Notes: generated by a model from the sequence alone, not told the origin. DNA of 64,000 bases from Thermoanaerobaculia bacterium (GCA_963816185.1 CAWFJJ010000025.1:352001-416000), one strand, 5' to 3'. Shown: positions 1-17,083, counted from the first letter of the stretch. Program-made: numbers and translations.

Positions 1-941
1 GGTCCCCACACGCCGGCGAGCTCGGCGTCCCACTGCCCGACGTTGTCGACCCCGTTCATCGTCCCGGTGTTGAGAAACTTCGCCTTGCTGACCTTCGTGG
101 CCTCGGGTCGGGAGGAGAAGTCGATGGCGTACACGATCGGCGCGAAGGCCGCGGAGCTGGCCGAGGCGGCGTCCGGCGTGCGGTTGTTGTACGCGAAGCC
201 GATGTGGACGGCCTCCTTCTTGGACTGGAAGATCGGCGCGCCGCTCGCGCGGACGGCCCAGCCCCAGCCCTGGTCGACGCCCGTGCTGTCGACCGAAATC
301 GTCTGCATGAAGATGTCGGCGGAAGCCTGCCAGCGGTCGGCGCCGTAGTAGTAGCCGAAGCCGAGGCGGCGGTCCGGCGTCATGGCGTCGCTGTAGGAAC
401 GCTCGACGAACCAGATGTCCTTCGAGGACGTCAGGGTGTCGAACCCGAACGGCACCTTGAAGTGGCCCGCCTGGATCGTGCTGTCCGTGATGCCCGTGTA
501 GCCGACGAAGGCATCCTTGATGTCCGTGGCATTCTCGGCGAAGTCCACGGAGAGCTCGGAGATCCAGTCTTTCGCGACGGTGGCCTTGTAGCCGATGCGC
601 ACGCGGCGGAGCGTGAAGCCGTTCGAAAGGCGGTTGTCGGAGTCGCTGTTGAACAGGCCGTCGAGCTGCACGCGGCCGGTGAGGCGGAACTTGTAGGCGC
701 CGTCCGCGCTCTCCCACCCGAGCTGGCCCTTGTCCGTGACGGCCCGGAGCTCGATGCCCTTCTTCTTCTTGGTGTCCTTGTCCGCGGCCTTCGTCTCGGC
801 CTTGGCGGCATCCTTCTTCGTGAGCTTCTCGACCTGCTGCTCGAGGTCACGAATCCTCTTCTCGGTGTCGGTGGGCTCCTGCGCCATGACCGGCACGGCC
901 AGCAGGGCGAGGAGCAGGGGGGTCACGAGAGACTTCTTCAT
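1..941 (-). CDS. OprO/OprP-family phosphate/pyrophosphate-selective porin (3' end runs off the window)
   Basis: Not in the ORF track; translated by hand: MKKSLVTPLLLALLAVPVMA signal peptide, coiled coil, then GRVQLD, LRRVRIG, IKDAFVGY, GHFKVPFG, FVERS, DRRLG porin O/P motifs. SD AGGAG upstream. Confidence 0.8.
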   Translation of the reverse strand, partial: MKKSLVTPLLLALLAVPVMAQEPTDTEKRIRDLEQQVEKLTKKDAAKAETKAADKDTKKKKGIELRAVTDKGQLGWESADGAYKFRLTGRVQLDGLFNSDSDNRLSNGFTLRRVRIGYKATVAKDWISELSVDFAENATDIKDAFVGYTGITDSTIQAGHFKVPFGFDTLTSSKDIWFVERSYSDAMTPDRRLGFGYYYGADRWQASADIFMQTISVDSTGVDQGWGWAVRASGAPIFQSKKEAVHIGFAYNNRTPDAASASSAAFAPIVYAIDFSSRPEATKVSKAKFLNTGTMNGVDNVGQWDAELAGVWG

Positions 942-1006
942 GGTTTCTCCTACTCGTTTTGGCGCCTTGCCCCGCGGGCGAGGCACATCGTCGTCTGAAC
1001 CTGTTT

Positions 1007-1022
1007 CGCAAACCTCGAGCCA
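1007..1022 (-). promoter_or_regulatory. sigma-54 (-24/-12) promoter of the porin gene
   Basis: Minus strand reads TGGCTCGAGGTTTGCG, i.e. GG-N10-GC. Confidence 0.75.
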
Positions 1023-1098
1023 TGTCGGGGCGGAGTGCCAAGTTCTTGTTGGAGAATCGCTTGGGCTCTTGTCTCGCCGCGGCACCACGCGCGCTTGC

Positions 1099-1135
1099 GT
1101 GCGGGAAACCGCACTCGCTGTGCGGCTCACCGCTC
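1099..1135. promoter_or_regulatory. Tandem palindromic enhancer (UAS type A)
   Basis: GTGCGGGAAACCGCAC-tcgct-GTGCGGCTCACCGCTC; near-identical copy at 3951-3987. Confidence 0.7.
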
Positions 1136-1151
1136 GGAAGGCAGCGGCGGG

Positions 1152-1192
1152 AAAAAAGAGGGGAAGCGGGCAGGAGGTGGCCCCGCTTCCCC
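1152..1192 (-). terminator. Rho-independent terminator after the pyrophosphatase gene
   Basis: 11-bp stem GGGGAAGCGGG/CCCGCTTCCCC followed on the minus strand by TCTTTTTT. Confidence 0.8.
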
Positions 1193-1218
1193 ATGCAATC
1201 GAAAGACGTGGAGAGCGG

Positions 1219-1986
1219 CTACTCGCCGAGGTTCTTCGCGCCCGGCCAGCGGTAGAGGTAGGGGTTGCCCTTCTCGTCGAGCGGCCGGCGGTCGGCGTCT
1301 GTCGTGACGGACTTCTCGTAGTCGAGGACGGCGTCGCCGATGAGCTTGATCGTCTCGGTGCGGCCCTTGAAACCCGGCGAGTTCAGGAAGAGCTTGCCGT
1401 CCTTGTCCCGGCCCTTGTAGGACGTGAACCAGGTCTGCAGGATCGAGGTCACCCCGGGGAACTTGCGGTCCAGCTCGTCGATGCTGCGCACCGGGAAGAA
1501 CGGCGTGTTCTCCATGACGACGACGACCTTGTCGTCCTTTTCGCCGGTGTCCATCAGGCTCATGATTCCGATCGCGCGGCCGCGCACGACGGAGCCCGTC
1601 GGGACGGACGGCCCGAGAACGAGCGCGTCCAGCGCGTCGCCGTCGCCGCCCTTCGACTTCAGGAAGACGGAGCGCGGGATGTTCCCGTAGTTGCACGGGT
1701 AGCCGAGGTACTGCACGTACCGCGGGGCGCCGTTCTTCTGCTCGAGCTCGATGTTCCCGGACTTCAGGTCGACCATGTACTTGGCGGTCGTGCCCGCGGG
1801 GATCTCGATGACGACGTTGACGGTCCCGTCCACGTTGACGGGGTCGTAACCGTTCAGGAAGTTCCTCTCGCCCTTGAGGACGGAGACCTGCGGCTGAAGC
1901 GTCTCGGCGGCGGCCGAGAGGCCGACGGCCGTCCCGAGCAGCAGCGCGAGGGCGACGACGCCGGACTTGATGAGGTTCTTCTTCAT
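1219..1986 (-). CDS. ppa: Family I inorganic pyrophosphatase with N-terminal signal peptide
   Basis: IEIPAG..K, YPCNYG, DGDALD, MDxGEKDDK and YK motifs; Sec-type leader MKKNLIKSGVVALALLLGTAVGLSAAA. Confidence 0.85.
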   Translation of the reverse strand: MKKNLIKSGVVALALLLGTAVGLSAAAETLQPQVSVLKGERNFLNGYDPVNVDGTVNVVIEIPAGTTAKYMVDLKSGNIELEQKNGAPRYVQYLGYPCNYGNIPRSVFLKSKGGDGDALDALVLGPSVPTGSVVRGRAIGIMSLMDTGEKDDKVVVVMENTPFFPVRSIDELDRKFPGVTSILQTWFTSYKGRDKDGKLFLNSPGFKGRTETIKLIGDAVLDYEKSVTTDADRRPLDEKGNPYLYRWPGAKNLGE

Positions 1987-2009
1987 GGTGTGTCAGCTCC
2001 TCGTTTCAT

Positions 2010-2855
2010 TTACGACGGGTCGTCGTTGTTCGCGGCCTTGGGCTTCTTCGTCTTCTTCTTCGGGGCGTCGGCCGGCTTGTCGGCGGGCTTCTCGTCGGCC
2101 TTCGTCGCCGTCGTCTCGGCCGGCTTGGGTGCTTCGAACGCCTTCTCGTACCGGATCACGGGCGCCCCGGCCTCCATCACCACCACGTGCGGGCGGCTCT
2201 TCTTCTTCGCGTCGTCGTACGCGAGCTTCGGGCTCTTCATGAGCTCCTCCCGGATCTCCTCGGGCGCGTACTCGAGGAGGTAGGCGACGTTCCCCCACGT
2301 CGCCGCGCCCGGGTCCACGATCTCGTGGATGTACTTCGCGGCGTTCACGAGCTGCTCCGGCGTGCGGTCCGTGTTGTGCTTCGAGTAGCGGCCCGACTTG
2401 TTGTTGAGCGTCCAGGTGTTCGAGGCCTTGTCGTAGAGGATCTCGCCGCTGATGCGGCCCGGGGCGCCGCCGAGCTCCGACACGTGCCCGAAGTTCTCGC
2501 GCGTGCCGGGCTTGCGCTGGGACTGGTCCTCCGGGCGGAAGAAGCCCTTCTCGTAGGTGCGGCCGAGCGGGTGGGCGGCCTCGGGGGCGATCGCGACGCG
2601 GCCTTCCGTGTCGATGACCCAGTTGTACGGCGCTTGCTTCACGTCGAGGATGGCCGGGAACTCTTTCGAGGCGATCTGAAGGTACGGGTTCAGGATCACC
2701 TTTCCGGTCTTGTCGGCCTCGTAGTGCTTGATGTACGCGGGCTGCGACGCGACCCCGAACTGCTGGTCGAGCGAAGCCGGAGCCTCGGCACACAAGGGCA
2801 GCGCCGAGAGGAGCAGGGCTCCGAGTAGGGTCTTGAGCGTTTGTCTCATCGTCAT
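2010..2855 (-). CDS. Secreted protein of unknown function (GHVSELGG..RISGEI..NNKSGRY motif)
   Basis: Signal peptide, SD upstream, lies in the operon between the CYTH-like gene and ppa. Confidence 0.7.
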   Translation of the reverse strand: MTMRQTLKTLLGALLLSALPLCAEAPASLDQQFGVASQPAYIKHYEADKTGKVILNPYLQIASKEFPAILDVKQAPYNWVIDTEGRVAIAPEAAHPLGRTYEKGFFRPEDQSQRKPGTRENFGHVSELGGAPGRISGEILYDKASNTWTLNNKSGRYSKHNTDRTPEQLVNAAKYIHEIVDPGAATWGNVAYLLEYAPEEIREELMKSPKLAYDDAKKKSRPHVVVMEAGAPVIRYEKAFEAPKPAETTATKADEKPADKPADAPKKKTKKPKAANNDDPS

Positions 2856-2889
2856 GCGTCTCCTTGGGTCTTGGTCTTGAATCTCGTGG

Positions 2890-3849
2890 CTATTTCGCCG
2901 TCACCGGTCTGTTCATGAGCTTGCGGACCTTCGAGCCCCCCCACTTGGGGCCGTCGGGCATGGCGAGAGAGGAGAGCTCGCCCATGACGACCTTGAGAAG
3001 GAACTGCTCACCGGCCGCGTGAACCTCGGCAATGTTGTAGAAGTCGAGGTCGCCGTAGCCGTATGAGAAGTCGTAGAGGTACGGCGCGCCGCCCTCCTTC
3101 GTGGCCCAGCCCTCCATCGAGACGCCGCAGGGCTCCGTGCCGGGCAGGACGACGGCGCCGGGGCGGACGCGATAGGACCACGCCTTCGTCCCGACGAGCT
3201 TCGTCGTGGCGGGGAGGCCCAGCTTGAGGAGCTCGGGCATGTACTTCCCGAAGTCGCCGAGCGTCCTCTCGCCGAGGTCGGCGGGCTTGACGCTGAAGCT
3301 GGATCCCTTCTCGATGATCTCGACGAGGCCGCCGCCGGGAGCGGGGCCGACGTTGCCCTCGGCCTCGGTCTTCGTCTTGAGGTCGACGACGGCGAGCGGG
3401 GTCGCGAGCGTCCTGACCGCGTCGTCCATGACCGACTTGACGGTCACGCCGACGTTTTCATCGGGCTTGCCGTCCTTGTACTTCGTCGTGATGCGGACGA
3501 GGTAGCCCTTGTTCCAGAGCGCCTGGTCGGGCGTGTCGAAGTATTCCTTCGTCGACATCTCGAGCTTGAGCGGGTTCTTCTCCTTTTCGGCGACGGTGAA
3601 GCCTTTCTTGGCAGCGGCGGCCTTGACCTGGCCCCAGATGTCCTTGAAGGCCTCTTCCGGCGTCCCTTTGGTTTTCGCGGGGTCGATGAGGAACTTGTAT
3701 TCGCGCCCGCCGACGTCCTCGAGCTTCGGGGCGGGGTACTTGGCGATGGTCTGCTCGTAGAGCGGCTTCGGAGCGTCGGCCGCGGCCACCATGCCGACGG
3801 CGGCGACGACGGCCGCGAGGAGCAGCCGTGGGACGGCACGGGTCTTCAT
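2890..3849 (-). CDS. Secreted CYTH/triphosphate-tunnel-like protein
   Basis: Start MKTRAVPR after AGGAGG; signal peptide; REYKFL (ExExK-like) and YFDTPDQALWNKGYLVRI motifs. Confidence 0.65.
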   Translation of the reverse strand: MKTRAVPRLLLAAVVAAVGMVAAADAPKPLYEQTIAKYPAPKLEDVGGREYKFLIDPAKTKGTPEEAFKDIWGQVKAAAAKKGFTVAEKEKNPLKLEMSTKEYFDTPDQALWNKGYLVRITTKYKDGKPDENVGVTVKSVMDDAVRTLATPLAVVDLKTKTEAEGNVGPAPGGGLVEIIEKGSSFSVKPADLGERTLGDFGKYMPELLKLGLPATTKLVGTKAWSYRVRPGAVVLPGTEPCGVSMEGWATKEGGAPYLYDFSYGYGDLDFYNIAEVHAAGEQFLLKVVMGELSSLAMPDGPKWGGSKVRKLMNRPVTAK

Positions 3850-3871
3850 GAAAATCCTCCTGCGGCTGCGG

Positions 3872-3887
3872 TGCAAGGCTCGAGCCA
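3872..3887 (-). promoter_or_regulatory. sigma-54 promoter of the CYTH-unknown-ppa operon
   Basis: Minus strand reads TGGCTCGAGCCTTGCA (GG-N10-GC). Confidence 0.8.
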
Positions 3888-3950
3888 CGCCGCCGAGAGC
3901 GCCTAGTCCTTCGGGATGAGCTGGATGGAGACCCAGCCGGAGGGTGTCGG

Positions 3951-3987
3951 GTGCGGAAAACCGCACTTGCTGTGCGGGGGGCCGCTC
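3951..3987. promoter_or_regulatory. Tandem palindromic enhancer (UAS type A, second copy)
   Basis: GTGCGGAAAACCGCAC-ttgct-GTGCGGGGGGCCGCTC. Confidence 0.7.
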
Positions 3988-5332
3988 AGTCGCCCGCGGG
4001 GGCGAGCCCGAGAACCTTGAGGCGGTCGTAGAGGGTCCGTCGGGCCATCCCGAGGACGGCGGCGGCCTCTGCGACGTTGCCTCCCGTGTGCTGCAGGACG
4101 CGCTCGATGTGGAGCCGCTCCATCTCCTTCATCGTCGCGAGCTCGCCCTCGGGCGTGGCGGCGGGCCGGGAGCCGTCCAGGCTCACGTCGAGGGCCTCGA
4201 GCCGGTCACCCTTGAGGAGGATCATCGCGCGCTCGAGGACGTTCGCGAGTTCGCGGATATTCCCGGGCCATGGGTAGCGCAGCAGCTGCGATTCCGCGAG
4301 GGTGCCGAGCTGGACCTCGGGCTTGCCCATGCGGCCGCAGACGCTCTGGAGGATGTGTTGCGCGAGGACCGGGATGTCCTCCGTCCGCTCGCGCAGGGGC
4401 GGGATCCTGAGGGTGAGCGTGCTGACGCGGTAGTACAGGTCGTCGCGAAACTTCTTCTCCCGCACGGCTTCCTCGAGGTCGAGATTCGTGCTCGCGAGGA
4501 GCCGGATGTCGACGTGACGATCCCGCACGTCGCCGAGACGGCGGAAAGTCTTCTCCTCGAGGGCCTTCAGGAGCTTGGGCTGGATCGCGGGGTCCATGTC
4601 GCCGATCTCGTCGAGGAAGACGATCCCGCGGTGGCCGACCTCGAGAAGCCCCTGCTTCGGGCTCACGGCGCCCGTGAACGCGCCTCGCTCGTAGCCGAAC
4701 AGCTCGGACTCGAGAAGCTCGCGCGAGAGTCCCGCGCAGTTCAGGTTGACGAAAGCCTCCTCGCGGCGCGGGCCGTTCGCGTGGATCCAGCGCGCGAGGA
4801 TGCCTTTACCCGAGCCCGTCTCGCCGAGGATGAGGACGGGACTGTCCCACTCGAGCATGAGGCGCGCGCGCTCCTCGAGCTCCTTGAGCACCCGGCTCAC
4901 GCCGAGGAACGGGTCGAATGCGCCCGGCTGCTCGCGGAGGGCGACTTCCTGACGTTTGCGGAGGCGCTGCTGCTCGAGGAGGCGGCGCACGAGAACGAGG
5001 AGAGCCTTGGACTCCACGGGCTTCGTCAGGAACTGTTCGGCGCCCTCCTTGATCGCGCGGACGGCGAGGTCGATAGAGCCGTGCGCGGTCAGGATGATGA
5101 AGGGCGTGTCCTCGCTGATCTTCTTGACCTCGGGCAGAAGGTCCAGAGAGGTGCCGTCGGGCAGGCTGTAGTCGGCGACGACGATGTCGTGCCCGACCTC
5201 GCGGAATCGCTCGAGAGCCTTCCGGTACGTCTCGGTCTCGTCGACGTCCAGGCCGTTCGCGCGAAGGAACGCGGCCATCCCGTGGCGCACCGCCGGATCG
5301 TCTTCGACGAGGAGGATCCGCGACTCAGGCAC
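3986..5332 (-). CDS. NtrC-family sigma-54 response regulator (REC-AAA+-Fis HTH)
   Basis: LLVEDD receiver, GETGSGK, GAFTGA, FLDEIG, WPGNIREL, C-terminal HTH. Confidence 0.95.
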   Translation of the reverse strand: MPESRILLVEDDPAVRHGMAAFLRANGLDVDETETYRKALERFREVGHDIVVADYSLPDGTSLDLLPEVKKISEDTPFIILTAHGSIDLAVRAIKEGAEQFLTKPVESKALLVLVRRLLEQQRLRKRQEVALREQPGAFDPFLGVSRVLKELEERARLMLEWDSPVLILGETGSGKGILARWIHANGPRREEAFVNLNCAGLSRELLESELFGYERGAFTGAVSPKQGLLEVGHRGIVFLDEIGDMDPAIQPKLLKALEEKTFRRLGDVRDRHVDIRLLASTNLDLEEAVREKKFRDDLYYRVSTLTLRIPPLRERTEDIPVLAQHILQSVCGRMGKPEVQLGTLAESQLLRYPWPGNIRELANVLERAMILLKGDRLEALDVSLDGSRPAATPEGELATMKEMERLHIERVLQHTGGNVAEAAAVLGMARRTLYDRLKVLGLAPAGD

Positions 5333-7246
5333 GTGTCGCCTCCGGGAGCTCCATCCTCAGGCGGGGTGCCGGGAGCCTCACGGTGACGCGTGCGCCTCCC
5401 CCGGCCGGTTGCTGGCTTCCACGGTGCCGCCGTGCTCCTCGACGACGCGTTTCACGATCGAGAGCCCGAGCCCCGTACCGCCCGCCCGGCGCGTGAAGAA
5501 GGGCTCGAACGCCCGCAACAGGGTCTCGCCCTCGAAGCCGGGTCCGTCGTCGTCGACGGAGAAGGACCACGAGTCGTGGCCGGCGGCGCCTGTGCGACGG
5601 CCGGTCACCGTGACGACGCTCCCGCTTGGCGCGTGCTGCAGCGCGTTCTCGAGGAGGTTGCGGAAGACCTGGTGCATGCGCCGCGCGTTCAGCGGGAGGA
5701 CGAGCCCCTCATCCTCGAGGTCGATGTGCACCGTGCACGAGGCGGCCGCCGCCGCCGCCTCGCACGACCGCCACGCGTCGCCGAGCAGTCCGCGCACGAG
5801 GCACGGCTCGGGGTTCAGCGTGCGTGGCTCGCCGTAGTCGCGAAGGTCGTTCATGAGGTTCGAAATCCGCTCGGCGCTTTCCCGAAGGGCCGACACGAAG
5901 GAGGCGTACCGAGGCTCGTCGCCGAAGGTCGCCTCGAGCGCGTCGAGGTTGATCGAGATCCCGTAGACGGGATTTCGGATCTCGTGGACGACGCCGCCGA
6001 CGAGGGCGCGGAGCGACTCCTCGGCGCGCCGCCGCTCCGTGATGTCCGTGCACAGGCCCGCCACGCGCGTCGCGCGGCCCGCGGCGTCCCAGGCCACGAT
6101 CTTTCCGGCGTCGAAGATCCAGATCCACTCGCCCGTCCGCGCGCGGATGCGGTACTCCGCCTGGTAGCGAGGGAGCCGGCCCTCGAGATGGGCGTTGAGC
6201 GCGGCCTCGACCTGGCGTCGGTCCTCCGGATGGATCCGGTCGAGGCCCGCGGCGAGCGTCGCCTCGACGGAGCCGGGGTCGAGGCCGGTCATCTCGAACC
6301 AGCGCGGGCTCCGGTAGAGCCGGCCGCTCCCGAGATCCCAGTCCCACAGCCCCTGCTGCGTGCCCTCGAGCGCGTGGTTGAGCCGCTCCTCGCTCGCGCG
6401 CAGGGCCGCGAGGGCCTCCTTGAGGGCCGTGATGTCGCGCGAGATCCCCGCGATGCGGTGGATGCGCCCCCACTTGTTTCGCACCGGCGTGAGGACCGTC
6501 TGGAAGATCCGCGTGCGCCCCCCGAGGGCGTGCTCCTCCTCGAACTGGAGCGGCCGTCCTTCCGCCTGGACGCGCTCGAAGTGGGGAACGAGCTGGGCGG
6601 CGCTCGTCCCGTCGAGACAGTCGGCGGCGGCGCGGCCCGCGAAGTCGGGGTTCAGGAAACCAATCCCCGCGTTCAGCGGGGGGTTCACGGTCTCGAACGT
6701 CATGACGCCGTCCTCGGCGATGCCGAGGACGTAGATCCAGTCGAAGAGGTTCGGGAACAGGCCGTCGACTCCCCGCTCCGCGCCATCGGAAGGTGCGGGA
6801 GCCGCCGCGGCGGCGAGACCGTGCTCGGGCGAGGCGAGCCGGGCGCGAACGCGCGCGCGCGCCGCCGCTTCCGGAAGGGAGGCGAGCTCGACGACGAGCT
6901 CGTGCACGCCGGCGGCCAGGAGCGCGGCCTCGAGATCAGGACGCTTCTCCGGCACGCGGGCAACGACGGGCAGCGAGGGATTGAGGGCCTGGAACGCGCG
7001 CAGCGGCTCGAGGTCGGGCGAGGCGCCGTCTCCCGCCCACAGGAGGAGGACGTCGTCCGCCGCGGCGCGAAAGTCGACGAGGAGAGCTTCGTTCCAACAC
7101 GTCACGTCGAGGACCAGGGGCGTGTCGTCCGGCCCGGGAAGGACGGCCCGGACGTCCGGAGGCACTCCCACCGCGAGGATCCGCCGCGTCGCCGGAAGCG
7201 TCTCTCGCGCCGGGGCTCCCTCGACCGCGACGTGGATTTCGTCCAT
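5325..7246 (-). CDS. Soluble PAS-PAS sensor histidine kinase with degenerate N-terminal receiver-like domain; frameshift near 5400
   Basis: HEIRNP, NLLENA, DDGPG, FEPFFT and GTGLGL boxes; no TM segment. One extra G in the G5 run restores NRPGGGARVTVRLP and a stop overlapping the regulator start. Confidence 0.85.
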
Positions 7247-7259: not shown

Positions 7260-8399
7260 TCAGCGGTCCGAGGATAACGGGTTTCCGCCATCCGGGACCG
7301 GGGAGGCCGGCCCGACGACCGCCGCGGCCGGAGGGGCACCCCGGCGACCCGGTGACGCCGCGCTGACCGGCAACTCGAACACGTTCTGAAAAACGAAGAG
7401 GCCGACGAGGGAAAAGACGAGGGCGGCGAGGGGCGCCGCCACCCACCCCGCCGCGATCTCGCCGAGCGCCCGGAACCGGATGCCGCTCCTTCTCACGAGC
7501 GAGATCCCGAGAATCGCGCCGACGACCGCCTGCGAGCCCGAGATGGGGACGAGGGGCCAGCCCGGCAGTCCGAGGGACCTCAGAAGCGCCTGCAGTTCCT
7601 TCGAACCGAAGAGGAAGAGGACCGTTGACGCCGAGAGGACGACGATGAGCGCGGCGAGAGGGGACAGCGAGGTGAGGCCGGCCCCCAGACGGACCATGAT
7701 CTGCCGCGAGTACGTCGTGATTCCGGCCGCGATCGCGAGGCCGCCGAGGAAGAAGAGCATCTGGACGCTCGTCGCGCTGAAGCCGCCGAGCGAGACCGAC
7801 TCCGGGAAGGGCGAGACCCTCACGAAGACGCCCATGACGTTCGCGATCGCGTTCTGTCCCAGGCTGAACGCCGCGAACGCGCCGACGCCGATCAGTCCGG
7901 CCCGCGTCCAGACGTCGACCTCGAGATCGTGCACCTTGAGGCGCGGAATCGCCGCACGTGCTCCCACGAAGAGCAGCGCGGCCAGGGCGCCGGCGAGCGC
8001 GGGGCTCACGACCCACGAGGAGAGGAGCGTCGAGAGAGTCGCGAGGTCGGTCGGCCGGCCCGTGAAGAGATTCCAGCCCACGATCGCGCCGACGATCGAC
8101 TGGGTGATCGAAACCGGAAGCCTGTTGCGCGTCAGAAGGATGACGACGGCGAGGCCCGCGGCGAGCGCGACGACGAAGGCCCCCGCAGGAGCGTCGATCG
8201 CACCCAGTCGGCCCAGCGTGCGTGCCGTTCCATGCGCGCCCGCGACGGCGCCGATCACCACGAAGACCGCCGCGACCCAGGCCGCGGTCCGGAACCGCAC
8301 CATCCGCGTGCCGACGGCCGTGCCGAAGATGTTCGCGCCGTCATTCGCGCCGAGGGACCATCCGAGGAAGATCCCGCTGGAGAGGAAGAGCCACGTCAC
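7260..8399 (-). CDS. pit: PiT-family inorganic phosphate transporter
   Basis: GANDGANIFGTAVG signature, PVSITQ, second half GQNAIAN; multiple TM segments. Confidence 0.9.
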   Translation of the reverse strand: MTWLFLSSGIFLGWSLGANDGANIFGTAVGTRMVRFRTAAWVAAVFVVIGAVAGAHGTARTLGRLGAIDAPAGAFVVALAAGLAVVILLTRNRLPVSITQSIVGAIVGWNLFTGRPTDLATLSTLLSSWVVSPALAGALAALLFVGARAAIPRLKVHDLEVDVWTRAGLIGVGAFAAFSLGQNAIANVMGVFVRVSPFPESVSLGGFSATSVQMLFFLGGLAIAAGITTYSRQIMVRLGAGLTSLSPLAALIVVLSASTVLFLFGSKELQALLRSLGLPGWPLVPISGSQAVVGAILGISLVRRSGIRFRALGEIAAGWVAAPLAALVFSLVGLFVFQNVFELPVSAASPGRRGAPPAAAVVGPASPVPDGGNPLSSDR

Positions 8400-9078: not shown

Positions 9079-9726
9079 TTATGAGCGCTGATCCATGCCG
9101 ACGACATGCTTGGCCGCCTTGAGGTAATTCGTGTTGGGCATGCCGGCGATGCCGAGTCCCTCGACGACCTGCTTCAGCCCCTGATAGTTCTCGCTCTCCG
9201 CACAGGCGGACTCCACCATTGCACCGTTGAACCACACCCGGGCGTATTCGCAGGTGACGCCGTCGATCGTGAACCCCCAGCGCATCTTCTCCACGGAGAC
9301 GGCCGTCATGTCGGGATGCCGGCGGACCATCCGGACGAAATCGTCGATCGTGTACGTGTCCTGGTCCAAGGCCATCTCGACCTTGAGGTTCGCCAGGATC
9401 GTGACGAGATCCGCCTTCTTCACCGGAAACTGAAACTTGCCGCGGGGCTGGAAGATCTCGTAGCCCTCGGGCGTCTCGCCCGTCTTCGTCTTGATGTCGA
9501 GCAGGCCGTCGCGCACCTTCACGTTCGCCTCGTCGGTACGGACGCTCAGGAAGTAGGTCTCGGCGGGCATCTTCCTGGCCTGGAAGAGGACGGTCTTTCC
9601 GTTCCACATCTTTTCCTTGACGAGGTCGATCACGCCCTTGCCGAAGACCCGGAATTCGGCCCGGGGCGTGATCTTCGCGGCATCCTCCGCGGACGTCGCG
9701 GTGTTCCTGGCAAACGGGTCGATCAT
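9079..9726 (-). CDS. Cytoplasmic CYTH-like hypothetical protein
   Basis: PRAEFRVF, ETYFLS, NVKVRDGLLDIK, VEKMRWGF..CEY..ESE pattern resembling tunnel-fold strands. Confidence 0.55.
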   Translation of the reverse strand: MIDPFARNTATSAEDAAKITPRAEFRVFGKGVIDLVKEKMWNGKTVLFQARKMPAETYFLSVRTDEANVKVRDGLLDIKTKTGETPEGYEIFQPRGKFQFPVKKADLVTILANLKVEMALDQDTYTIDDFVRMVRRHPDMTAVSVEKMRWGFTIDGVTCEYARVWFNGAMVESACAESENYQGLKQVVEGLGIAGMPNTNYLKAAKHVVGMDQRS

Positions 9727-9772: not shown

Positions 9773-10495
9773 TCACCCGCCTCCGCGGGCGACGAGGTCG
9801 CGGAAGCGAAAAAGGTAGAGACCGGACAGCGCGACTCCCGCCGCGAGCCACAGGAGCGACCTTCGGCTCGGCACGACTTCCAGCCGCATCGACGTGTCGT
9901 CGCCCTGACCGAGGTTCGCAAGCCTCAGGAGGGCGTTCTGCCGGCCGCCTTCGCCCCCGAGACGGACGCGGGGCTCCACCTCGGACCTCGTCTGCTTCGG
10001 CAGCTGCTCGCGGATGGCCTGGAAGCGCGTGTCCTCGGGGAGGGTCACGAGGAACCGGAAGTCCATGATGAGCGTGACCTGCGAGTTCACGAAGGCGTAG
10101 CGGAGGATGCGGCTGTCGCGGGGCATCGTCAGCTTCATTCCCTCCGCGGGCTCCGGGGCCTTGGCGAAGACCCTCGGGACGTCGAAGGCGAACGCGAGCC
10201 GACCCGCGCCGGCCGTCGCAGGGGGCAGAGTCACCTGGAGCGTGGCCGACTTCTCCGTCGGCGGCTCCACGCGAAGGCCGTCCGTGGCCTCCGTCAGCCG
10301 GAAGTTCATCCCGGCACCGTGACTCAGCGGAATCACGACGGTCTCCGAGGGGTCGCCCGCGATGACGAGGGTGCTGGTCGCGCGGCCTGCGCCGCTGGCG
10401 TCGACGTCCAGCCGCGTCGCGTATTCCCGGATCTCCGCCGCGCTGGCGGGGCCCGGGGCGGACGCGAGGAGCGCGAACGCGAGGATCCTCTTCAT
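9773..10495 (-). CDS. Exported beta-rich protein with C-terminal membrane anchor
   Basis: MKRILAFALLA signal peptide; C-terminal TM; ATGA overlap with the DASS stop. Confidence 0.7.
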   Translation of the reverse strand: MKRILAFALLASAPGPASAAEIREYATRLDVDASGAGRATSTLVIAGDPSETVVIPLSHGAGMNFRLTEATDGLRVEPPTEKSATLQVTLPPATAGAGRLAFAFDVPRVFAKAPEPAEGMKLTMPRDSRILRYAFVNSQVTLIMDFRFLVTLPEDTRFQAIREQLPKQTRSEVEPRVRLGGEGGRQNALLRLANLGQGDDTSMRLEVVPSRRSLLWLAAGVALSGLYLFRFRDLVARGGG

Positions 10496-12054
10496 TTCGG
10501 CATCGCCCAGAAGGACGGCGTGATCCCGAGCCAGTGGAACCACGTGGCGGCGGAGAGGACGAGAAGGACGAGCCCGACCGTGCAGACGGTGATCCCGTAC
10601 TTGAAGTTGTCGATCACGGAGTACTGGTTCGTGGAGAAGAGAATCACGTTCGGCTTTCCGCTGATCGGGAGGCCGACGACCCAGTCGATCGTGAGCGCCG
10701 CGGGAAGGGCGAGCGACACGGGGTCCCAGCCGAGGGCCTTCGCCATCGTGATGATGATCGGGATCATGATGATCGTCCGCACGGTCTTCGAGGTCGTGAG
10801 GAGGTGGCTGTACATCATCACGGCCACGATGATCGTGAAGGCCGCGCCGAAGGGAATCACCTTCAGGTTCATCCCCCCGAACAGCATCCTCACGCCCCAC
10901 TCGGCTGCGCCCGTGTCGTCGAGGGCGAGGCCGCCGGCGTAGGCCCCGGCGCTGAAGATGAGCAGGTGCCACGGGATGTCGGCCTCCTGCCACTGAAGGA
11001 CTCCCCACCGGGGGAACAGCACGAGCACCGCGCCCAGGAGCGCGGCGAACGGAGCGCTGATCTCCACGCCGAACCACCGCATGTGGAAGATGTCCGTCAT
11101 CCAGAGGAAGAGCACGAGGGCGAAGATGGCGAGGGCCTTCTTCTCCTGGAAGCTCAACGGCCCCATCGCCGCGTGCTGCGCCTCGACGAGCGGAAGTCCT
11201 CCCTCCACGCTCGGGACCTGCTCCGCCGCCGGGATCGGAAAGATCAACTTCCGGCCCAGGAACCACATGATCAGCATCGTCACGATGGCGATCGGGGCTC
11301 CGGCGCGCATCCAGTCCATGTAGTAGATGCGGCGGCCGCCCATGCTCTGGATGAAGCCCACGGCGATGAGGTTCGCGCTCGACCCCGTCATGCTGATGGA
11401 CGAGAGCGCCGAGATCCCCGCGAGGTTGAGCAGGAACATGTTCTTGCCGAAGTTGTTCGGATGGGCCTCGCTCGACCCGTAGATGTTCGCGACGACGATC
11501 ATCAGGGGCAGCGTCATGACGCAGCGGGCGGCCGTGGCGGGGATGAGCGGGGCGAGGGCGAGCTGGATGATCACGAACGCGAGGAGCGCCCAGGACGCCT
11601 TGCGGCCGAACTTCACGATGAGGAAGAGCGACATCCGCTTGGCGAGTCGCGTCTTCACGAGCATCGCGGCGAGGATGAACGCCAGGAGGTTGAGCCAGAT
11701 GACCTCCATGCCGAGGACGTCCATGATCGGCTTGGCCGCCGACGTCCGGGTCACGAGGAGCAGGAACATCAGGACCAGGGACGTGACGTACGTCGGGAAG
11801 GGCTCCGTGACCCACCAGACCAGCGCGAGCAGGAAGCAGGCGGTGCCGGATTGGGCCGCCGCGCTGAGGCCCGTTCCGGGCGGGAGGTAGAGGATCAGGA
11901 GGAAGAGGGCGATGCCGCCCGGGAACCCCAGGTAGCGCATCCAGCGCTCGGCGACGCTCTGCGCGTCCCGAGGCTTCGCCGACAGCGTCATCTTCTCCAT
12001 GTCCAGGAGCTCCTGGAGCGTGGGGGCCCTGGCCGGCAGCGCGCTCTCCGCCAT
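10492..12054 (-). CDS. DASS/SLC13 divalent anion:sodium symporter
   Basis: WWVTEPFP, IPATAAR, MTGSSAN and LPISGKPN hairpin motifs. Start may instead be 12000 (SD AGGAG). Confidence 0.9.
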   Translation of the reverse strand: MAESALPARAPTLQELLDMEKMTLSAKPRDAQSVAERWMRYLGFPGGIALFLLILYLPPGTGLSAAAQSGTACFLLALVWWVTEPFPTYVTSLVLMFLLLVTRTSAAKPIMDVLGMEVIWLNLLAFILAAMLVKTRLAKRMSLFLIVKFGRKASWALLAFVIIQLALAPLIPATAARCVMTLPLMIVVANIYGSSEAHPNNFGKNMFLLNLAGISALSSISMTGSSANLIAVGFIQSMGGRRIYYMDWMRAGAPIAIVTMLIMWFLGRKLIFPIPAAEQVPSVEGGLPLVEAQHAAMGPLSFQEKKALAIFALVLFLWMTDIFHMRWFGVEISAPFAALLGAVLVLFPRWGVLQWQEADIPWHLLIFSAGAYAGGLALDDTGAAEWGVRMLFGGMNLKVIPFGAAFTIIVAVMMYSHLLTTSKTVRTIIMIPIIITMAKALGWDPVSLALPAALTIDWVVGLPISGKPNVILFSTNQYSVIDNFKYGITVCTVGLVLLVLSAATWFHWLGITPSFWAMPK

Positions 12055-12069: not shown

Positions 12070-12085
12070 TGCACGCGGGGTGCCA
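12070..12085 (-). promoter_or_regulatory. sigma-54 promoter of the DASS-to-regulator operon
   Basis: Minus strand reads TGGCACCCCGCGTGCA (GG-N10-GC). Confidence 0.75.
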
Positions 12086-12137
12086 TGGCCTGTGGGGCGC
12101 GAAAGACCGCAGGATCCGTGCTCATCGCGATCGAGAT

Positions 12138-12192
12138 GGCGAACATTCGCCGCCGAGTGGCGAAATTTCGCCCATGGCGGCGAGATTTCGCT
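12138..12192. promoter_or_regulatory. Three phased palindromes GGCGA-N4-TCGC(C) (UAS type B)
   Basis: Copies at 12138, 12159 and 12179, spaced 21 and 20 bp. Confidence 0.7.
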
Positions 12193-12287
12193 ACTCTGGC
12201 CTCGTGCTCGAAGCGACAGGCAGCGCGCCCTCCGCCTCTTCTCTCGGGATCGGACCGCGGCACGGGCCTTGTAAGGACCGTGCCGCA

Positions 12288-13187
12288 ATGAGGCGGGTCC
12301 GGCTCTTCGGCTCGGCGCTCGCCGCGCTCGTGGCGGTGGCGGCGGTCGCGCTCTTCGTCCGCATTCGCGACCTCACGTCGGAGGGCGCCCTCCTCGCGGC
12401 GCCGTCCGGCGCGGCAGCATCGGACACGCGGCCCGAGCGCGTGATCGGCGTCGTGTCCCGGCTCGCGCCCGTGAGCCTTTACGAGGGTTACCAGCCCATC
12501 CTCGATTACCTCGGCCGGACGACGCCTTATCGGTACCGCCTCCGCGTGGCACGCGGCTACGGCGACGCCGTCGAGGACCTCGTCGCGGGGCGCACGCAGG
12601 GAGCGTTCCTCGGCAGCCTCCTTTACGTGCAGGCACACGCCGTCCACAGGGTGGAACCGCTCGTCCGTCCGCGCAACGCGCGCGGAGAACCGACCTTCGA
12701 GTCGGTCGTCGTGGTCCGCGAGGACAGCCCGGTCCGCCGCCTCGACGACCTAACGCGACACACGGTCGCGGTGCCGCCGCCGGATTCGTTCTCGGCGAAC
12801 TGGCTCCGCGCCGCGGCGCCGGGCGCGGCGTTCGTCGAGCGCACGTTCGCCCACCACGAGGCGGTCGTCCACCAGGTGCTGCGCGGGGCGTGCGACGCCG
12901 GCGTCGTCAAGGAGCGCGTGGCGGCGCCGTACCTCGCGCGCGGCCTGAGGATCGTCGCGCGTTCGGGCCCGATGCCGGGCTCGCCGTTCGTCGTCCTGGG
13001 CGACGCGGAGCCCGCGTTCGTTCGGGCTGTCGCGTCGGCGCTCCTCGCGCTCGATCCGGCACGGCCGGCCGACCGCGAGATCCTCACGAGCTGGGATCCC
13101 GAATTCGCGTGGGGGTTCGCCCCGGCGGCCGACCGCGACTATGACGCCGTCCGCCTGTTCGCCGCCGCACGGGCGCCGTCGCCGTGA
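12288..13187 (+). CDS. PhnD-like phosphate/phosphonate substrate-binding protein
   Basis: N-terminal hydrophobic anchor; YQPILDYL, AFLGSLLY, FESVVVVREDS, SFSAN, HEAVV..V..G..DAG motifs. Confidence 0.85.
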   Translation: MRRVRLFGSALAALVAVAAVALFVRIRDLTSEGALLAAPSGAAASDTRPERVIGVVSRLAPVSLYEGYQPILDYLGRTTPYRYRLRVARGYGDAVEDLVAGRTQGAFLGSLLYVQAHAVHRVEPLVRPRNARGEPTFESVVVVREDSPVRRLDDLTRHTVAVPPPDSFSANWLRAAAPGAAFVERTFAHHEAVVHQVLRGACDAGVVKERVAAPYLARGLRIVARSGPMPGSPFVVLGDAEPAFVRAVASALLALDPARPADREILTSWDPEFAWGFAPAADRDYDAVRLFAAARAPSP

Positions 13188-14635
13188 CGTTTCCCCCAGC
13201 GCGCTCGACGCTCCGCGGGCGCCTGCTCGTCGCGACGGGCGGGACCGTCGCGGTCCTTCTTCTCGCGGTCTTCGTCGTCGTCCTCGTGACGTGGCGCGGA
13301 CGAATCGTCGGCGACCTCGAGCGCAGCGCCCTCGCCGTGACGCGCGCGTTCTCCGTCTCGGTCCTCGAAACGCTCCTCGAGGCCGAGAACGGCGCCGTCA
13401 AGGCGCCCGAGCGGCTCGACGAGTACATCGAGCACCTCATGCGCGACGACCGCCAGATCCGCAGCGTGCGCGTCTACGACCCGGCGGGCGTCCTCGTCTC
13501 CTCCAGCACGCTCTACGAGGTCCCGGCTGCGGCGTCGGCCGCGAAGCCGGCCGCGAGCCGGCGCCTGAGCGCCGTCTACCATAGCCCGCGGTGGGGCTGG
13601 GTCGTCGAGACGAACCTGCCGCTCCGGACGGGCGGGAAGGACTGGGGCCTCCTCGAGGTTCTCTACGACGCCGAGGCGACACGGCGCGAGCTGACGGGCC
13701 TCTACGTCCTCCTCGGCGGCGGGACCCTCGTCATCGTCGCGGTCCTCCTCGTCGTCCTTCGCGCGCTCGTCGTCCGCGAGACGCGTCCGCTGACGGCCCT
13801 CGCGTCGGTCATGGACCGCGTCGACCTCGAATCGGGCGGCGGGCCGCCGCTGCCCGAGTCCGACGACGAGATCGGGACGGTCGTCGCGCAGTTCAACCGG
13901 ATGCGCGCGCGCCTCGCGCAATCGCGCGAGGAGCTGCTCTCGGCGCAGCGCCAGATCTTCCACGCCGAACGCCTCGCCTCGATCGGCCGCCTCGCGTCCG
14001 GCGTGGCGCACGAGGTCAACAACCCGCTCAACGGGATCCGGAGCTGTCTCTACGCGATGCGCCAGGAGCCCGAGAACCGCGCGCAGACGGCCGAATACCT
14101 GGGTCTCATCGAGGAGGGAATCGGCAGGATCGAATCGATCGTCCAGAAGCTTCTCGGCTTCTCCCGAACGTCGCGCGGGGACGCTCCCGTCGATCTGAAC
14201 GCCGAGATCTCCGCCGTCCTCGCCCTTCTCGCATACCGGCTCGACGAGAAGAACGCCGACGTCGTGCGCGTCCTCGCGGAGGACCTCCCGCCCGTGCGCG
14301 GCGAGGCGACGCTCGTGCAGGAGGTCCTCATGAACCTCGTCCTGAATGCCTTCGACGCGATCGGGCCCGGTGGGCGCGTGACGGCCCGGACGGCGCGCGA
14401 CGGGCAGTTCGTGCGCGTGGACGTCGAGGACGACGGCTGCGGGATCGCGGAGGAGGATCTCCCGAAGGTCTTCGATCCGTTCTTCACGACGAAGGATCCC
14501 GGCAAGGGGACCGGGCTCGGCCTCTCGGTCGCCCAGCGAATCGTCGAGGCGCACGGCGGCACGATCGACGTGACGAGCCTCGCCGCGGGAGGGACCTGCT
14601 TCACCGTGCGCCTTCCCGTCGGAGGCGCGGCGTGA
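13184..14635 (+). CDS. Membrane HAMP sensor histidine kinase
   Basis: Two TM segments, [15 protein letters not shown]1/F/G2 boxes. Confidence 0.93.
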
Positions 14636-15987
14636 GGATCCTCCTCGTCGAGGACGAGAAGATCACGCGGGTCTCCCTCTCGCGCACGCTCGCGAAGGCC
14701 GGTCACGCCGTGACGGCCTGCGAGACCGCGGCCGAGGCGCTCGAGGCCCTCGGGAAACCGGCGTTCGACCTCGTCCTGACGGACCTCCGCCTCCCGCGGG
14801 GGTCCGGGATGGACGTCCTCAGGGCCGCGCTTTCTCTCGAGCGGCCGCCGGCCGTCATCCTGATGACGGCGTATGCGTCCGTCGAGACGGCGGTCGAGGC
14901 GATCAAGCTCGGCGCGGCGGACTATCTTACGAAGCCATTCTCGCCGGAACAGCTCCTCCACCGCATCGGCAGGATCGAGGAACTCCGCGCCGCGAAGACC
15001 GAAGTGAGCCGTCTCAGGCGGACGCTCGAGGGCGAGGAGGCACGTTCGATCGTCGGCGCCTCCGCCGTGATGCGCCGCCTTCAGCAGACACTGCGCGTCG
15101 TCGGGGCGCGCGACACGACGGTCCTCGTCGAGGGAGAGAGCGGGACGGGGAAGGAGCTCGTCGCGCGCGCGCTCCATCGGCTCTCGGAGCGCGCCGACGG
15201 ACCCTTCGTCCCCGTGAACTGCGCGGCCATTCCCGAGACGCTCCTCGAGAGCGAGCTTTTCGGGCACGAGAAGGGCTCCTTCTCGGGCGCCGCCTCTCGC
15301 CACGAGGGCTATTTCGAGCGCGCCAACCGCGGAACGATCTTCATCGACGATGTCGACGACTTTCCAATGCCGCTCCAGGTCAAGCTCCTGCGCGTCCTGC
15401 AGGAGCGGGAGTTCCTGCGCGTGGGGGGGCGGACGCCCGTGCGCGTCGACATCCGCGTCGTGTGCGCGACGAAGGTGCGCCTCGCCGAACTCGTCCGGCA
15501 GGGGAGGTTCCGGGAAGATCTCTACTACCGCCTCGCGATCGTCCCGCTGCGCGTGCCGCCGCTCCGCGAACGAAAGGAAGACATCCCGGCCCTCCTCGAC
15601 CATTTCTTCGCCCGATACGGCGCAGGCGCGAAGGCGCGGGCTCGCCTCGCGGCGCTCCTCCCGTCTCTTCTCGAGCACGGCTGGCCGGGCAACGTGCGCG
15701 AGCTCGAGAACGTCGCACAGCGGATCATCGCGCTTCCGGAGATCGAGCGGCTCGACTTCGACGACGTCGCGCGCGTCTCGGCGCCGGCGCTGCCGCCCGT
15801 CATCGCGCCGTCCGACGGAAAGATCGCCTACCGCGACGTCATGGAAACGGCGGACCGGCAGCTCATCCAGTGGGCGCTCGACCGCGCGGGCGGGCACGTG
15901 ACCGCCGCGGCCGAGCTCCTCGACCTGCCGCGCAGCACGCTTCGGAGCAAGATCGAGAAGTACGGGCTGTCCTCGACGGACGCGTGA
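14632..15987 (+). CDS. sigma-54 response regulator with variant motifs
   Basis: GTG start overlapping the kinase stop; [34 protein letters not shown]. Confidence 0.92.
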
Positions 15988-16565
15988 GACTCACCGCGCA
16001 CTCTCCACCCGGGTCCTTGCCGCGTGTCTCGCTCGCGCGGCTCGCGGGGACGTTCGCGCTCGTCGGCGCGACGAGCTTCGGCGGCGGCCTGACGGGCTAC
16101 ATCCGGCGGACGCTCGTCGAGGACCGGCGCTGGCTGACGGACGACGAGTTCCTCGAGGGATTTTCCGTCGCGCAAGCGGTCCCCGGCCCGAACGCGGTCA
16201 ACCTCGCGATCTTCGCCGGCTGGCGGCTGAACGGATCCGCGGGCGCCGCCGTCGCGGTCGCCGCCGTGATGTTCGTGCCGCTTCTCTTCGTCTCCGCGCT
16301 CGCGGCAGGTTGGTCCGCCTGGGCCGCCCAGCCGCACGCGGCCGGCGTCATGAAAGGTCTAGGCGCCTTCGGCGTCGGTATTCTGGCCTCGAGCGGCCTC
16401 TCGATGCTGCGGGCGGCGCGCTTCCGCGGACCGGATCTGCTCCTCGCGCTCGCCGCTTTCCTCTGTGTCGCCATGCTCGGATTCTCCGTGCCAGCCGTTC
16501 TCTTCGGCCTCGCAGCCCTGTCGGCCCTGCGTCCGCGGGGGGCGGACGCGGAGAGGACCCCGTGA
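15984..16565 (+). CDS. Short-chain chromate ion transporter (CHR) subunit 1
   Basis: SFGGG, WLTDDEF, AQAVPGP. Confidence 0.85.
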
Positions 16566-17083
16566 ACGGGACGCTCGTCGAGCTCGCGCGCGTCTTCGCG
16601 CTCCTCTCGCTGACGTCTTTCGGCGGCGGGAACGTCGTGATTCCGGAAATCCAACGCCAGGCCGTCACGATCCACGGCTGGCTCACGCAGGAGGCCTTCA
16701 CGGAAGCGTTCGCGCTCTCGCGCTCGGCGCCGGGGCCGTCGACGCTGTTCGTGCTGCTCGTGGGGTGGCGCGCGGCCGGCGGTCCCGGCGCCGCCGCGGC
16801 AGTCGTCGCGATGTTCCTGCCCGGCGCCGCGCTCATGCAGGGTGCGTGCGCGGCCCTTGCCCGCTGGGGCCGGCGCCCGCTCGTGGGCCGGGCCGTTGCC
16901 GCGTTTCGCCCCGTGACGATCGGGCTCGTCTTCGCGAGCGTCGCCGTCATGGCGCGGTCCACGCTCGTCGATCCCTTCACGCTCGTCGTCGCGGTGCTCG
17001 TCGCCGGTGCCGCGACCTTCACGCGTGCGCCGCTCATCGGTCTGCTCGCGGCGGCGGCCGCCGCCGGGTGGTTCGCCCCGTGA
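16562..17083 (+). CDS. Short-chain chromate ion transporter (CHR) subunit 2
   Basis: SFGGG, GWLT, SRSAPGP. Confidence 0.85.
   Translation: MNGTLVELARVFALLSLTSFGGGNVVIPEIQRQAVTIHGWLTQEAFTEAFALSRSAPGPSTLFVLLVGWRAAGGPGAAAAVVAMFLPGAALMQGACAALARWGRRPLVGRAVAAFRPVTIGLVFASVAVMARSTLVDPFTLVVAVLVAGAATFTRAPLIGLLAAAAAAGWFAP

Follow-up and report, generated by a model that had tools for sequence, protein, structure and literature searches.

What does a bacterium do with an outer-membrane porin, a secreted pyrophosphatase, a set of triphosphate-tunnel proteins and several anion carriers encoded side by side? This question is raised by the first 17,083 positions of a 64,000-nucleotide stretch of the genome of a Thermoanaerobaculia bacterium (GCA_963816185.1, CAWFJJ010000025.1:352001-416000; hereafter the window). 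An earlier note on this DNA read these genes as a sigma-54-controlled island for the sensing and scavenging of pyro- and tripolyphosphate. In our analysis, the island is probably, though by no means certainly, a sigma-54-controlled system for the uptake and stepwise hydrolysis of exogenous condensed phosphate (pyro-, tripoly- and short polyphosphate, perhaps also cyclic trimetaphosphate). The substrates, activities, transport directions and signals of this scheme are all deduced from the gene content, folds, conservation and promoter-like elements described below. Conservation, tunnel folds and, at the level of sequence, the sigma-54 signals agree with the earlier reading; its limits for the island had to be revised, and a PhnD-like sensor and its two regulatory partners turned out not to belong to the core.

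All sixteen genes previously listed were found, contiguous, at positions 1-17083 by Pfam searches and by the G+C content at third codon positions (GC3). Because the window has a G+C content of 65-73%, open frames are plentiful, and frames were picked using GC3 together with family searches. The island extends further than had been described, since about 1.6 kb to the left of position 1 carry the C-terminus of the porin gene and two more genes, par198 (L013:16864-17460, about 0.5 kb from the window edge) and CYTH155 (L013:16369-16836), which brings the island to 18 genes. Beyond CYTH155 lies an unrelated gene for a pyridoxal phosphate enzyme on the opposite strand. Four genes have no Pfam match even at E≤10 (2010-2855, 2890-3849, 9079-9726 and 9773-10495); their products are called here unk281, unk319, unk215 and acc240, respectively.

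The exceptionally conserved core of the cluster is unk215, a predicted cytoplasmic protein of 215 residues encoded at 9079..9726 on the minus strand. In a collection clustered at 90%, 1871 of the 1995 candidates scored are relatives at E≤0.001, with the best 120 at least 79% identical, and the wider family comprises 729 representatives at 50% clustering. Scanning one genome per species with a narrow alignment (A3) yielded 234 loci, the best 80 of which were analysed. In these 80 loci unk215 is 71-86% identical and at least seven phyla are represented, according to our own labelling from record titles: Acidobacteriota (30), Spirochaetota (23), Betaproteobacteria (11), Chloroflexota (3), Desulfovibrionaceae (3), Gammaproteobacteria (3), Gemmatimonadota (2) and others (5). 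The protein is still 75% identical between our genome, where GC3 is 0.85, and a spirochaete where it is 0.37. A quick tree of 78 of 81 sequences, from which three rows were left out for stops, short length or low identity, required 15 changes of taxon label as compared to 42.5 after shuffling, with a backbone that was not resolved. The identity kept across the shift in GC3 and the clustering of taxon labels point to long purifying selection, and not only to recent transfer.

We mapped the island proteins and four further neighbours onto the 80 loci (tblastn, E≤1e-6, query coverage of 45% or more). As many loci are cut by contig ends, the counts are minimum values, and weak matches to large families may be paralogues. 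Among the island proteins, the most frequent companions of unk215 are an anion carrier of the DASS family (44 loci), CYTH155 (43), acc240 (33) and the porin (25). PiT and DUF47 were each found in 14 loci, a CHR protein in 6, the PhnD-like protein in 4 and kinase 1 and activator 1 in 3 each; the additional neighbours TctC, TctA, a DHH protein and a SulP-STAS carrier with a cyclic-nucleotide-binding (cNMP-binding) domain were found in 20, 16, 29 and 14 loci, respectively. Taken by kind, an anion carrier (DASS, TctABC, SulP or PiT) accompanies unk215 in 69 of the 80 loci and in 42 of the 44 that are at least 15 kb long; a pyrophosphatase or a DHH (PPX1-type) enzyme does so in 48 of 80 and 29 of 44. 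The SulP-STAS gene, absent from the window, directly follows unk215 and occurs mostly in Betaproteobacteria (e.g. L040:8665-10905 and L056:8667-10883).

The Spirochaetota loci illustrate how the parts may be exchanged. A DHH/DHHA2 protein accompanies unk215 in 22 of the 23 loci, most of which also encode TctCBA, so that TctABC and a cytoplasmic PPX1-type enzyme take the place of the DASS and CYTH genes; PiT is present in 6 of 23. The one DHH protein that was searched against solved structures (from L051) has yeast PPX1 as its best relative (2qb6, 3e-22), ahead of family II pyrophosphatases, and the three DHH proteins inspected have no signal peptide. The PPX1-like gene thus stands where CYTH155 stands elsewhere. 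Furthermore, in three of five longer unk215 relatives that were scanned, the unk215-like part is followed by a Ppx/GppA domain. No enzyme of the yeast PPX1/h-prune or Ppx/GppA type is encoded in the window; what these proteins tell us concerns the function of the shared core and not which genes belong to the island. The accessible parts of PMC3440374 name prune as the chief tripolyphosphatase in mammalian tissue. Altogether, the phosphoanhydride hydrolases that accompany unk215 are of four unrelated kinds, and its anion carriers likewise of four kinds. Downstream of its TctABC-DHH form, the cluster has a conserved protein of about 905 residues without Pfam match (L051:13053-15770 and four other spirochaete-type loci).

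Closer to the window, a search of 41 genomes gave unk215 in 7, including 6 of 24 others of the genus and none of 16 from two other families of the order. Among 301 genomes drawn from the phylum, 6 have a close orthologue (E≤1e-60), this genome included; the other five belong to a single different family. Three arrangements were recognized by mapping the island proteins with tblastn onto the fetched loci. In four genomes, all genes lie on one strand in the order kinase 1, activator 1, unk319, unk281, pyrophosphatase, porin, par198, CYTH155, DASS, acc240, unk215, DUF47, PiT, with no PhnD-like sensor, kinase and activator. Our genome and one other locus show the two modules of this order swapped and carry divergent PhnD, kinase, activator and CHR genes. 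A third, shorter arrangement occupies the same chromosomal site without the secreted module. The conserved neighbourhood on which the earlier note had staked its proposal is thus real: six more genomes of the genus share the gene order, other phyla share part of it, and chance does not account for it.

Four proteins of the island can be assigned to the triphosphate-tunnel superfamily. The clearest case is CYTH155, a canonical CYTH protein of 155 residues (PF01928, 5.7e-14) that starts with MAKEIERKF and carries EIERK as its first-strand motif. Its best solved relative is NE1496, the NeuTTM enzyme of Nitrosomonas europaea (2fbl; 1.9e-15, residues 4-146, end to end), with the stretches QGYL and TIKG aligned to QGYL and TLKS of 2fbl. 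The Tyr and Lys of CYTH155 occupy the aligned sites, one residue off Tyr-28 and Lys-52 in chain numbering; after this offset they probably correspond to the pair that the authors of PMC3440374 proposed, in the text available, as a catalytic dyad. In the same source the N. europaea protein is a specific tripolyphosphatase. A second CYTH gene is present elsewhere in our genome. CYTH155 can therefore be compared with the CYTH-family inorganic tripolyphosphatases NeuTTM (2fbl/3typ) and E. coli YgiF, which are stand-alone, cytoplasmic proteins for which the accessible parts of PMC3440374 give no known physiological role. In contrast, the NeuTTM-like gene of the island lies amid a porin, carriers, secreted enzymes and genes for three more tunnel-fold proteins, two of them from families without Pfam model and one secreted.

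These three are unk215, its paralogue par198 (32% identity) and unk319, encoded at 2890..3849 on the minus strand. Structure models of unk215 and unk319 were obtained with high confidence (predicted local distance difference test, 94.8 and 91.8, respectively) and have the eight-stranded beta-barrel typical of the tunnel fold; their top matches in fold comparison are exclusively tunnel enzymes, with class IV cyclases among the fold matches. The CYTH-like character that the earlier note had attributed to both proteins is hence borne out by the predicted structures. We dropped the idea of a kinship detectable in the sequences, the profile searches given further below being null, and the fold comparison is the only link. 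The first-strand signature of the CYTH family is E-x-E-x-K. In the unk215 family the corresponding motif is R22-x-E24-x-R26, invariant in 74 sequences, and unk319 has G-R-E-Y-K without the first Glu. Catalysis by unk215 and unk319 is therefore plausible but not assured, since the motif deviates though many further charged strand residues are invariant in both proteins.

The secreted module consists of unk319, unk281 (2010..2855, minus strand) and a family I inorganic pyrophosphatase of 255 residues (1219..1986, minus strand; PF00719, 3.9e-29). Signal peptides of these three proteins and of acc240 were read by eye from the N-termini; a hydrophobicity scan scored an N-terminal segment for the pyrophosphatase and unk319 and none for unk281 and acc240. 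The pyrophosphatase scores 101.9 bits against a PF00719 cut-off of 23.5; its GDGDALD aligns with GDNDPLD of 8qpt, the D-x-D-x-x-D metal motif is present, and a hydrophobic segment at residues 9-27 resembles a signal peptide. With 65 bits against the 200-bit cut-off of the NCBIfam equivalog it must be a divergent member of family I, and among solved structures it is closer to eukaryote-type than to E. coli-type enzymes. It is also the only PF00719 gene of the genome, which encodes a membrane H+-pyrophosphatase elsewhere (852 bits; G000:C5:156186-158369); cytoplasmic pyrophosphate is presumably handled by the latter.

The partner protein unk281 belongs to no known family: none of 12 members has a Pfam match, no PDB sequence match was found and the ESM Atlas returned unnamed clusters only. 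An NCBIfam match to XopV (2.5e-7, 30.6 bits against a cut-off of 220) was not taken as meaningful. Many His, Arg, Lys, Asp and Glu residues of unk281 are invariant (alignment A4). In Acidobacteriota, Betaproteobacteria and Desulfovibrio the protein ends with an invariant KAAxNDDPS, preceded by a variable linker rich in Lys, Pro and Ala; this peptide may serve in sorting or docking. In five loci (L027, L038, L040, L070 and L086) unk319 and unk281 are encoded in a single frame of 581-610 codons without internal stops, in the order unk319, linker rich in Ala and Pro, mature unk281 lacking its signal peptide. A sixth long frame (L091) does not start with unk319.

The porin gene lies on the minus strand at 3..941, where the window holds its first 313 codons of 455 (Porin_O_P, 3.2e-24, partial match). 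The full gene (L103:1574-2941) matches positions 1-370 of the 370-position Porin_O_P model (3.6e-54). OprO prefers pyrophosphate, and particular residues decide this preference; membership of the Pfam family is insufficient to read it into the island porin. As in the case of OprP and OprO from the Pho regulon of Pseudomonas, a full-length Porin_O_P protein is encoded here among phosphate-acquisition genes. Unlike these, it has neither PhoB/PhoR nor Pst for neighbours, and the promoters look sigma-54-dependent. The absence of PhoBR and Pst genes that the earlier note had recorded was confirmed: neither a PstB-class nor a full-length PhoB-class match occurs in the window. A different contig carries, close together, the PstB of the genome, which exceeds the curated cut-off, and the best PhoB-like gene.

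Two carriers are encoded on the minus strand. A PiT/PHO4 phosphate carrier (7260..8399; PHO4, 3.6e-42; GTG start at 8399 in a frame open to 8525) is paired with a DUF47 protein (8413..9057; PhoU_div, 1.6e-26). The second is an atypical DASS anion carrier (10492..12000; Na_sulph_symp, 7.7e-61; ATG at 12000 with an AGGAG ribosome site, alternative ATG at 12054), which scores 187.1 bits against TIGR00785, under the cut-off of 198.6. SNT stretches form the sodium- and substrate-binding hairpin tips of the DASS family. They are not found in the island protein, where IPATAA(R) stands opposite ISNTAT and TSKTVR opposite TSNVAT of human NaDC1. The patterns (P/S)AT..(R/K) and SKT.R are common to the DASS genes of the cluster in five phyla, including a second subgroup that is only 34-38% identical, and suggest a rebuilt, positively charged site. 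The adjacent minus-strand gene (9773..10495) encodes acc240, which appears by eye to be exported and to have a C-terminal membrane anchor. It has no family and yields only unnamed clusters in the Atlas; in all 33 loci that have it, it is accompanied by a DASS gene or lies at the end of a contig.

At the right end, two half-size CHR (ChrA-like) proteins are encoded on the plus strand at 16008..16565 (Chromate_transp, 1.8e-32; start approximate) and 16562..17083 (Chromate_transp, 7.5e-33; GTG start at 16562). Such a pair also adjoins the cluster in five betaproteobacterial loci (L040, L045, L061, L070 and L088), and this recurrence suggests a role other than chromate efflux. Farther right, a GMC-type oxidoreductase gene (window 17723-19396) is apparently split over two frames, the FAD-binding N-terminus being in the frame of 17723 and the GMC_oxred_N and C domains in that of 18123-19343, possibly through a frameshift or an assembly error. 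Further on, a BNR/PKD-repeat protein of 1824 residues (21199-27072, plus strand) overlaps a minus-strand frame for an M28 peptidase, so that one of the two must start later than its open frame. On the left side, about 9 kb from the island, an ArsP-type permease and a Crp-family regulator (L013:5039-7085) show no sign of membership.

How are these genes controlled? Two pairs of regulators are encoded. On the minus strand, activator 1 (3986..5332; Pfam Sigma54_activat, Response_reg and HTH_8, i.e. receiver, AAA+ and HTH_8 domains) is preceded by kinase 1 (5378..7246; frame to 7339, ATG at 7246 likely), a PAS-PAS histidine kinase with Pfam PAS, HisKA and HATPase domains and no membrane segment, hence cytoplasmic. 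On the plus strand, a PhnD/PtxB/ArrX-like binding protein (12288..13187; Phosphonate-bd, 2.3e-50), presumably a periplasmic sensor held in the membrane by an anchor segment at residues 6-24, is followed by the HAMP histidine kinase 2 (13184..14635; Pfam), which has two membrane segments and a periplasmic loop of about 140 residues, and by activator 2 (14632..15987; Sigma54_activat, 7.4e-67; Response_reg, HTH_8). Kinase 1 starts 13 bases past the stop of the PiT gene, and an outer sensor could therefore induce the importer operon and the cytoplasmic sensor pair together.

Three sigma-54-type -24/-12 elements, all on the minus strand, are well placed for such control: TGGCTCGAGGTTTGCG before the porin operon (1007..1022), TGGCTCGAGCCTTGCA before unk319-unk281-pyrophosphatase (3872..3887) and TGGCACCCCGCGTGCA before the DASS operon (12070..12085), the last being conserved in L018. 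The first two have at most two mismatches and lie 23-81 bases upstream of their genes; the DASS element lies 16 bases upstream of ATG 12054 and 70 from the likelier start at 12000. A palindrome, CCGCAC-N5-GTGCGG, termed UAS1 and presumed to be the site of activator 1, occurs at 1109..1125, followed by TTTCCCGCAC, and again at 3961..3977, followed by TTTTCCGCAC. Three UAS2 palindromes, GCGA(A/G)-N2-TTCGC, spaced by 20-21 bp, lie in the divergent region between DASS and PhnD (12139..12191). After the pyrophosphatase gene, a GC-rich hairpin with a T-run (1151..1192, minus strand), read directly and kept in related loci, is a likely terminator; a scan with consensus terminators did not list it.

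These signals are conserved in close relatives. An equivalent of the porin element was found in all five close loci, four times by regular expression and in L014 by eye (TGGCTTGGGCTTTGCG); that of the unk319 element was also found in five of five, three times by regular expression and by eye in L014 and L018 (TGGCTTGGGCCTTGCA), which carry an element variant, TGGCTTGGG..., likewise read by eye. In the same five loci UAS1, followed by TTT(T/C)CCGCAC, lies about 75-100 bases upstream of the unk319 and porin elements. The two UAS1 sites of the island are the only ones in the 5.09-Mb genome, and the promoter subtype TGGCTCGRGNNTTGC occurs four times in it, two of them here (control, 0). rpoN is present in the genome. 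A sigma-70 scan gave no site in 19.5 kb, which at 0.4 expected carries no weight. Upstream of distant porin genes, a loose regular expression applied without chance control found sigma-54-like sequences in 12 of 20 cases and UAS1-like sequences in 5 of 20, which we take as a hint only. Sigma-54 control as proposed in the earlier note thus gains support from the placed elements, the palindromes and rpoN. It is nonetheless a feature of the lineage and not of the core, since a LysR-type gene adjoins the annotated Desulfovibrio cluster, regulators varying by lineage, and since the PhnD-kinase-activator trio, which the earlier note had included in its proposed search for conserved co-occurrence, is found in only 4 of the 80 related loci.

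Put together, these genes would form the following route. Condensed anions would enter through the OprO/P-family porin and be shortened in the periplasm by the secreted tunnel-fold protein unk319 with unk281, then by the family I pyrophosphatase, to orthophosphate, which PiT would take up with DUF47. In parallel, the atypical DASS carrier and acc240 may import condensed species intact, to be processed in the cytoplasm by unk215, par198 and the NeuTTM-like CYTH155; the resulting pyrophosphate could pass to the membrane H+-pyrophosphatase of the genome. The PhnD-like sensor, kinase 2 and activator 2 would drive the DASS operon through UAS2. This operon also carries kinase 1 and activator 1, which in turn would drive both UAS1 promoters, those of the secreted enzymes and of the porin operon.

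Several observations weigh against such a route. In the same lower-bound counts as above most loci appear without the secreted module (pyrophosphatase in 20 of 80, unk281 in 19 and unk319 in 17). The Pfam CYTH model PF01928 does not match unk215 or unk319 (E≤10) or par198 (E≤0.01), a profile search of the PDB gave only insignificant matches for unk215 (1yem, 0.25; 2dc4, 0.34) and none relevant for unk319, and hhalign comparisons among the alignments A1 and A2 and CYTH155 gave probabilities below 1%. Given their deviant first-strand motifs, unk215 and unk319 could bind their ligand instead of hydrolysing it. The whole window contains 17 sigma-54-like matches as compared to 11.3 ± 3.5 expected, a number reached by 6 of 100 shuffles and thus not above chance, and the reversed UAS1 pattern has three sites in the genome, so that the two UAS1 sites are no excess; the regulatory case rests on placement and conservation, because the counts are not above chance. 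The nearest solved relatives of the sensor bind phosphite or arsenate, not condensed phosphate, and neither the CHR pair nor the SulP carriers have an obvious role in the scheme. Finally, the authors of PMC3440374 state, in the part of the paper at hand, that significant tripolyphosphate was not detected in E. coli, which makes its natural abundance uncertain.

Each of the four rival explanations taken up further below accounts for some of the parts, but none for the constant core. A bolder variant of our own reading, which we hold to be somewhat unlikely, has condensed phosphate not only digested outside the cell: tripolyphosphate or trimetaphosphate would be imported intact by DASS or TctABC and cleaved in the cytoplasm, and the H+-pyrophosphatase would convert the pyrophosphate formed into proton-motive force. 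A tri-anionic condensed phosphate resembles a tricarboxylate in charge, and TctABC would be the stand-in for DASS in Spirochaetota; unk215 would open or cleave the anion and a NeuTTM-like or PPX1-like enzyme would release pyrophosphate. Direct import through DASS, raised as a possibility in the earlier note, is made more credible by the replacement of the SNT motifs with motifs containing Lys or Arg and by the exchange for TctABC and a cytoplasmic PPX1-type enzyme in Spirochaetota. If this variant were true, environmental condensed phosphate would be both a phosphorus and an energy source, and the family of unk215 would add a new class of enzymes to the tunnel superfamily.

Scavenging of organic tri- or polyphosphates such as nucleoside triphosphates, thiamine triphosphate or inositol (pyro)phosphates, with tunnel enzymes trimming the terminal phosphates and the carriers taking up either the organic anion or phosphate, seems unlikely. 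The closest solved relative of CYTH155 is the tripolyphosphate-specific NE1496, the recurrent partners of the cluster are of inorganic pyrophosphatase and exopolyphosphatase types, and no nucleosidase, nucleotidase, nucleoside carrier or thiamine gene was found in the scanned loci.

It is likewise improbable that the island serves plain orthophosphate (or sulfate) uptake and homeostasis, with cytoplasmic tunnel proteins managing the cell's own polyphosphate or tripolyphosphate and the secreted enzymes acting as general phosphatases. Porin_O_P, PHO4 and PhoU_div are indeed ordinary phosphate-uptake families, the yeast low-affinity phosphate carriers belong to the DASS family, and both kinases match PhoR-type and PnpS-type models, though far below the cut-offs. 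However, the secreted pyrophosphatase and a secreted tunnel protein that can be fused to unk281 are left unexplained, as is the strict pairing of unk215 with TctABC and a PPX1-type enzyme in Spirochaetota, where PiT is found in only 6 of 23 loci; PiT and DUF47 are themselves limited to 14 of the 80 loci.

The sensor could also point to another oxyanion (phosphite, arsenate, chromate or sulfate), sensed and handled in the manner of AioXSR or ArrXSR. Its best solved relatives are PtxB (6.2e-13), ArrX (2.7e-10) and AioX (6.5e-5), and the available portions of PMC7565993 and PMC5908839 describe for AioXSR the same layout of binding protein, kinase and sigma-54 activator. As in these systems, a PhnD/PtxB-family periplasmic protein, a membrane kinase, a sigma-54 activator and an adjacent sigma-54-type promoter are found together here, a likeness of architecture only. 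The CHR pair, adjacent here and in the five betaproteobacterial loci, and the SulP genes of 14 of the 80 loci can be cited in the same sense. Unlike in AioXSR and ArrXSR, control here would extend over carriers and phosphoanhydride hydrolases and not over an arsenite oxidase or arsenate reductase, and no oxidase, reductase, ars or ptx gene is present in the island. Moreover, the constant parts are the tunnel proteins and the pyrophosphatases, the sensor trio being confined to 4 of 80 loci; we consider this explanation very unlikely. Cyclic-nucleotide signalling, with CYTH155 as a class IV adenylate cyclase gating the cNMP-binding SulP carrier found beside unk215 in other phyla (14 of 80 loci), hardly deserves credit: CYTH proteins do include the class IV cyclases, which also turned up in the fold comparison, but a cNMP-binding SulP gene is missing from the window, the best alignment of CYTH155 is to the triphosphatase NE1496 and not to a cyclase, and pyrophosphatases, porin and secreted proteins would be left unexplained.

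Uptake and stepwise hydrolysis of condensed phosphate is therefore the reading that we retain. Full-text literature searches, part of whose results were almost only clinical or eukaryotic, returned no bacterial gene set for condensed-phosphate uptake and no description of such a cluster. Haloferax volcanii grows on exogenous polyphosphate as sole phosphorus source, with degradation apparently intracellular, according to the accessible portions of PMC13318637 (2026), in which the uptake route is called unresolved. The physiology proposed there is the same as here; the organism is an archaeon, and as neither enzyme nor uptake route is identified in the text at hand, it offers no gene for comparison. 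For NeuTTM-type tripolyphosphatases, whose substrate had never been found in cells according to the available part of PMC3440374, the island, if our reading is true, would provide a physiological role.

If correctly interpreted, the cluster also adds three or more protein families that Pfam does not cover (unk215/par198, unk281 and acc240), together with a DASS subtype whose binding site has been rebuilt. The proposal can be tested directly, since the cluster is carried by cultured bacteria: a strain of Desulfovibrio falkowii (L098) and Mesoterricola silvestris, the latter named on homologues. Lysing cells, phosphorus-removal sludge, detergents and food additives release large amounts of polyphosphate, pyrophosphate and tripolyphosphate. 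If the proposed function is true, the genes described here would be candidates for a flux of the phosphorus cycle that has so far gone untracked.

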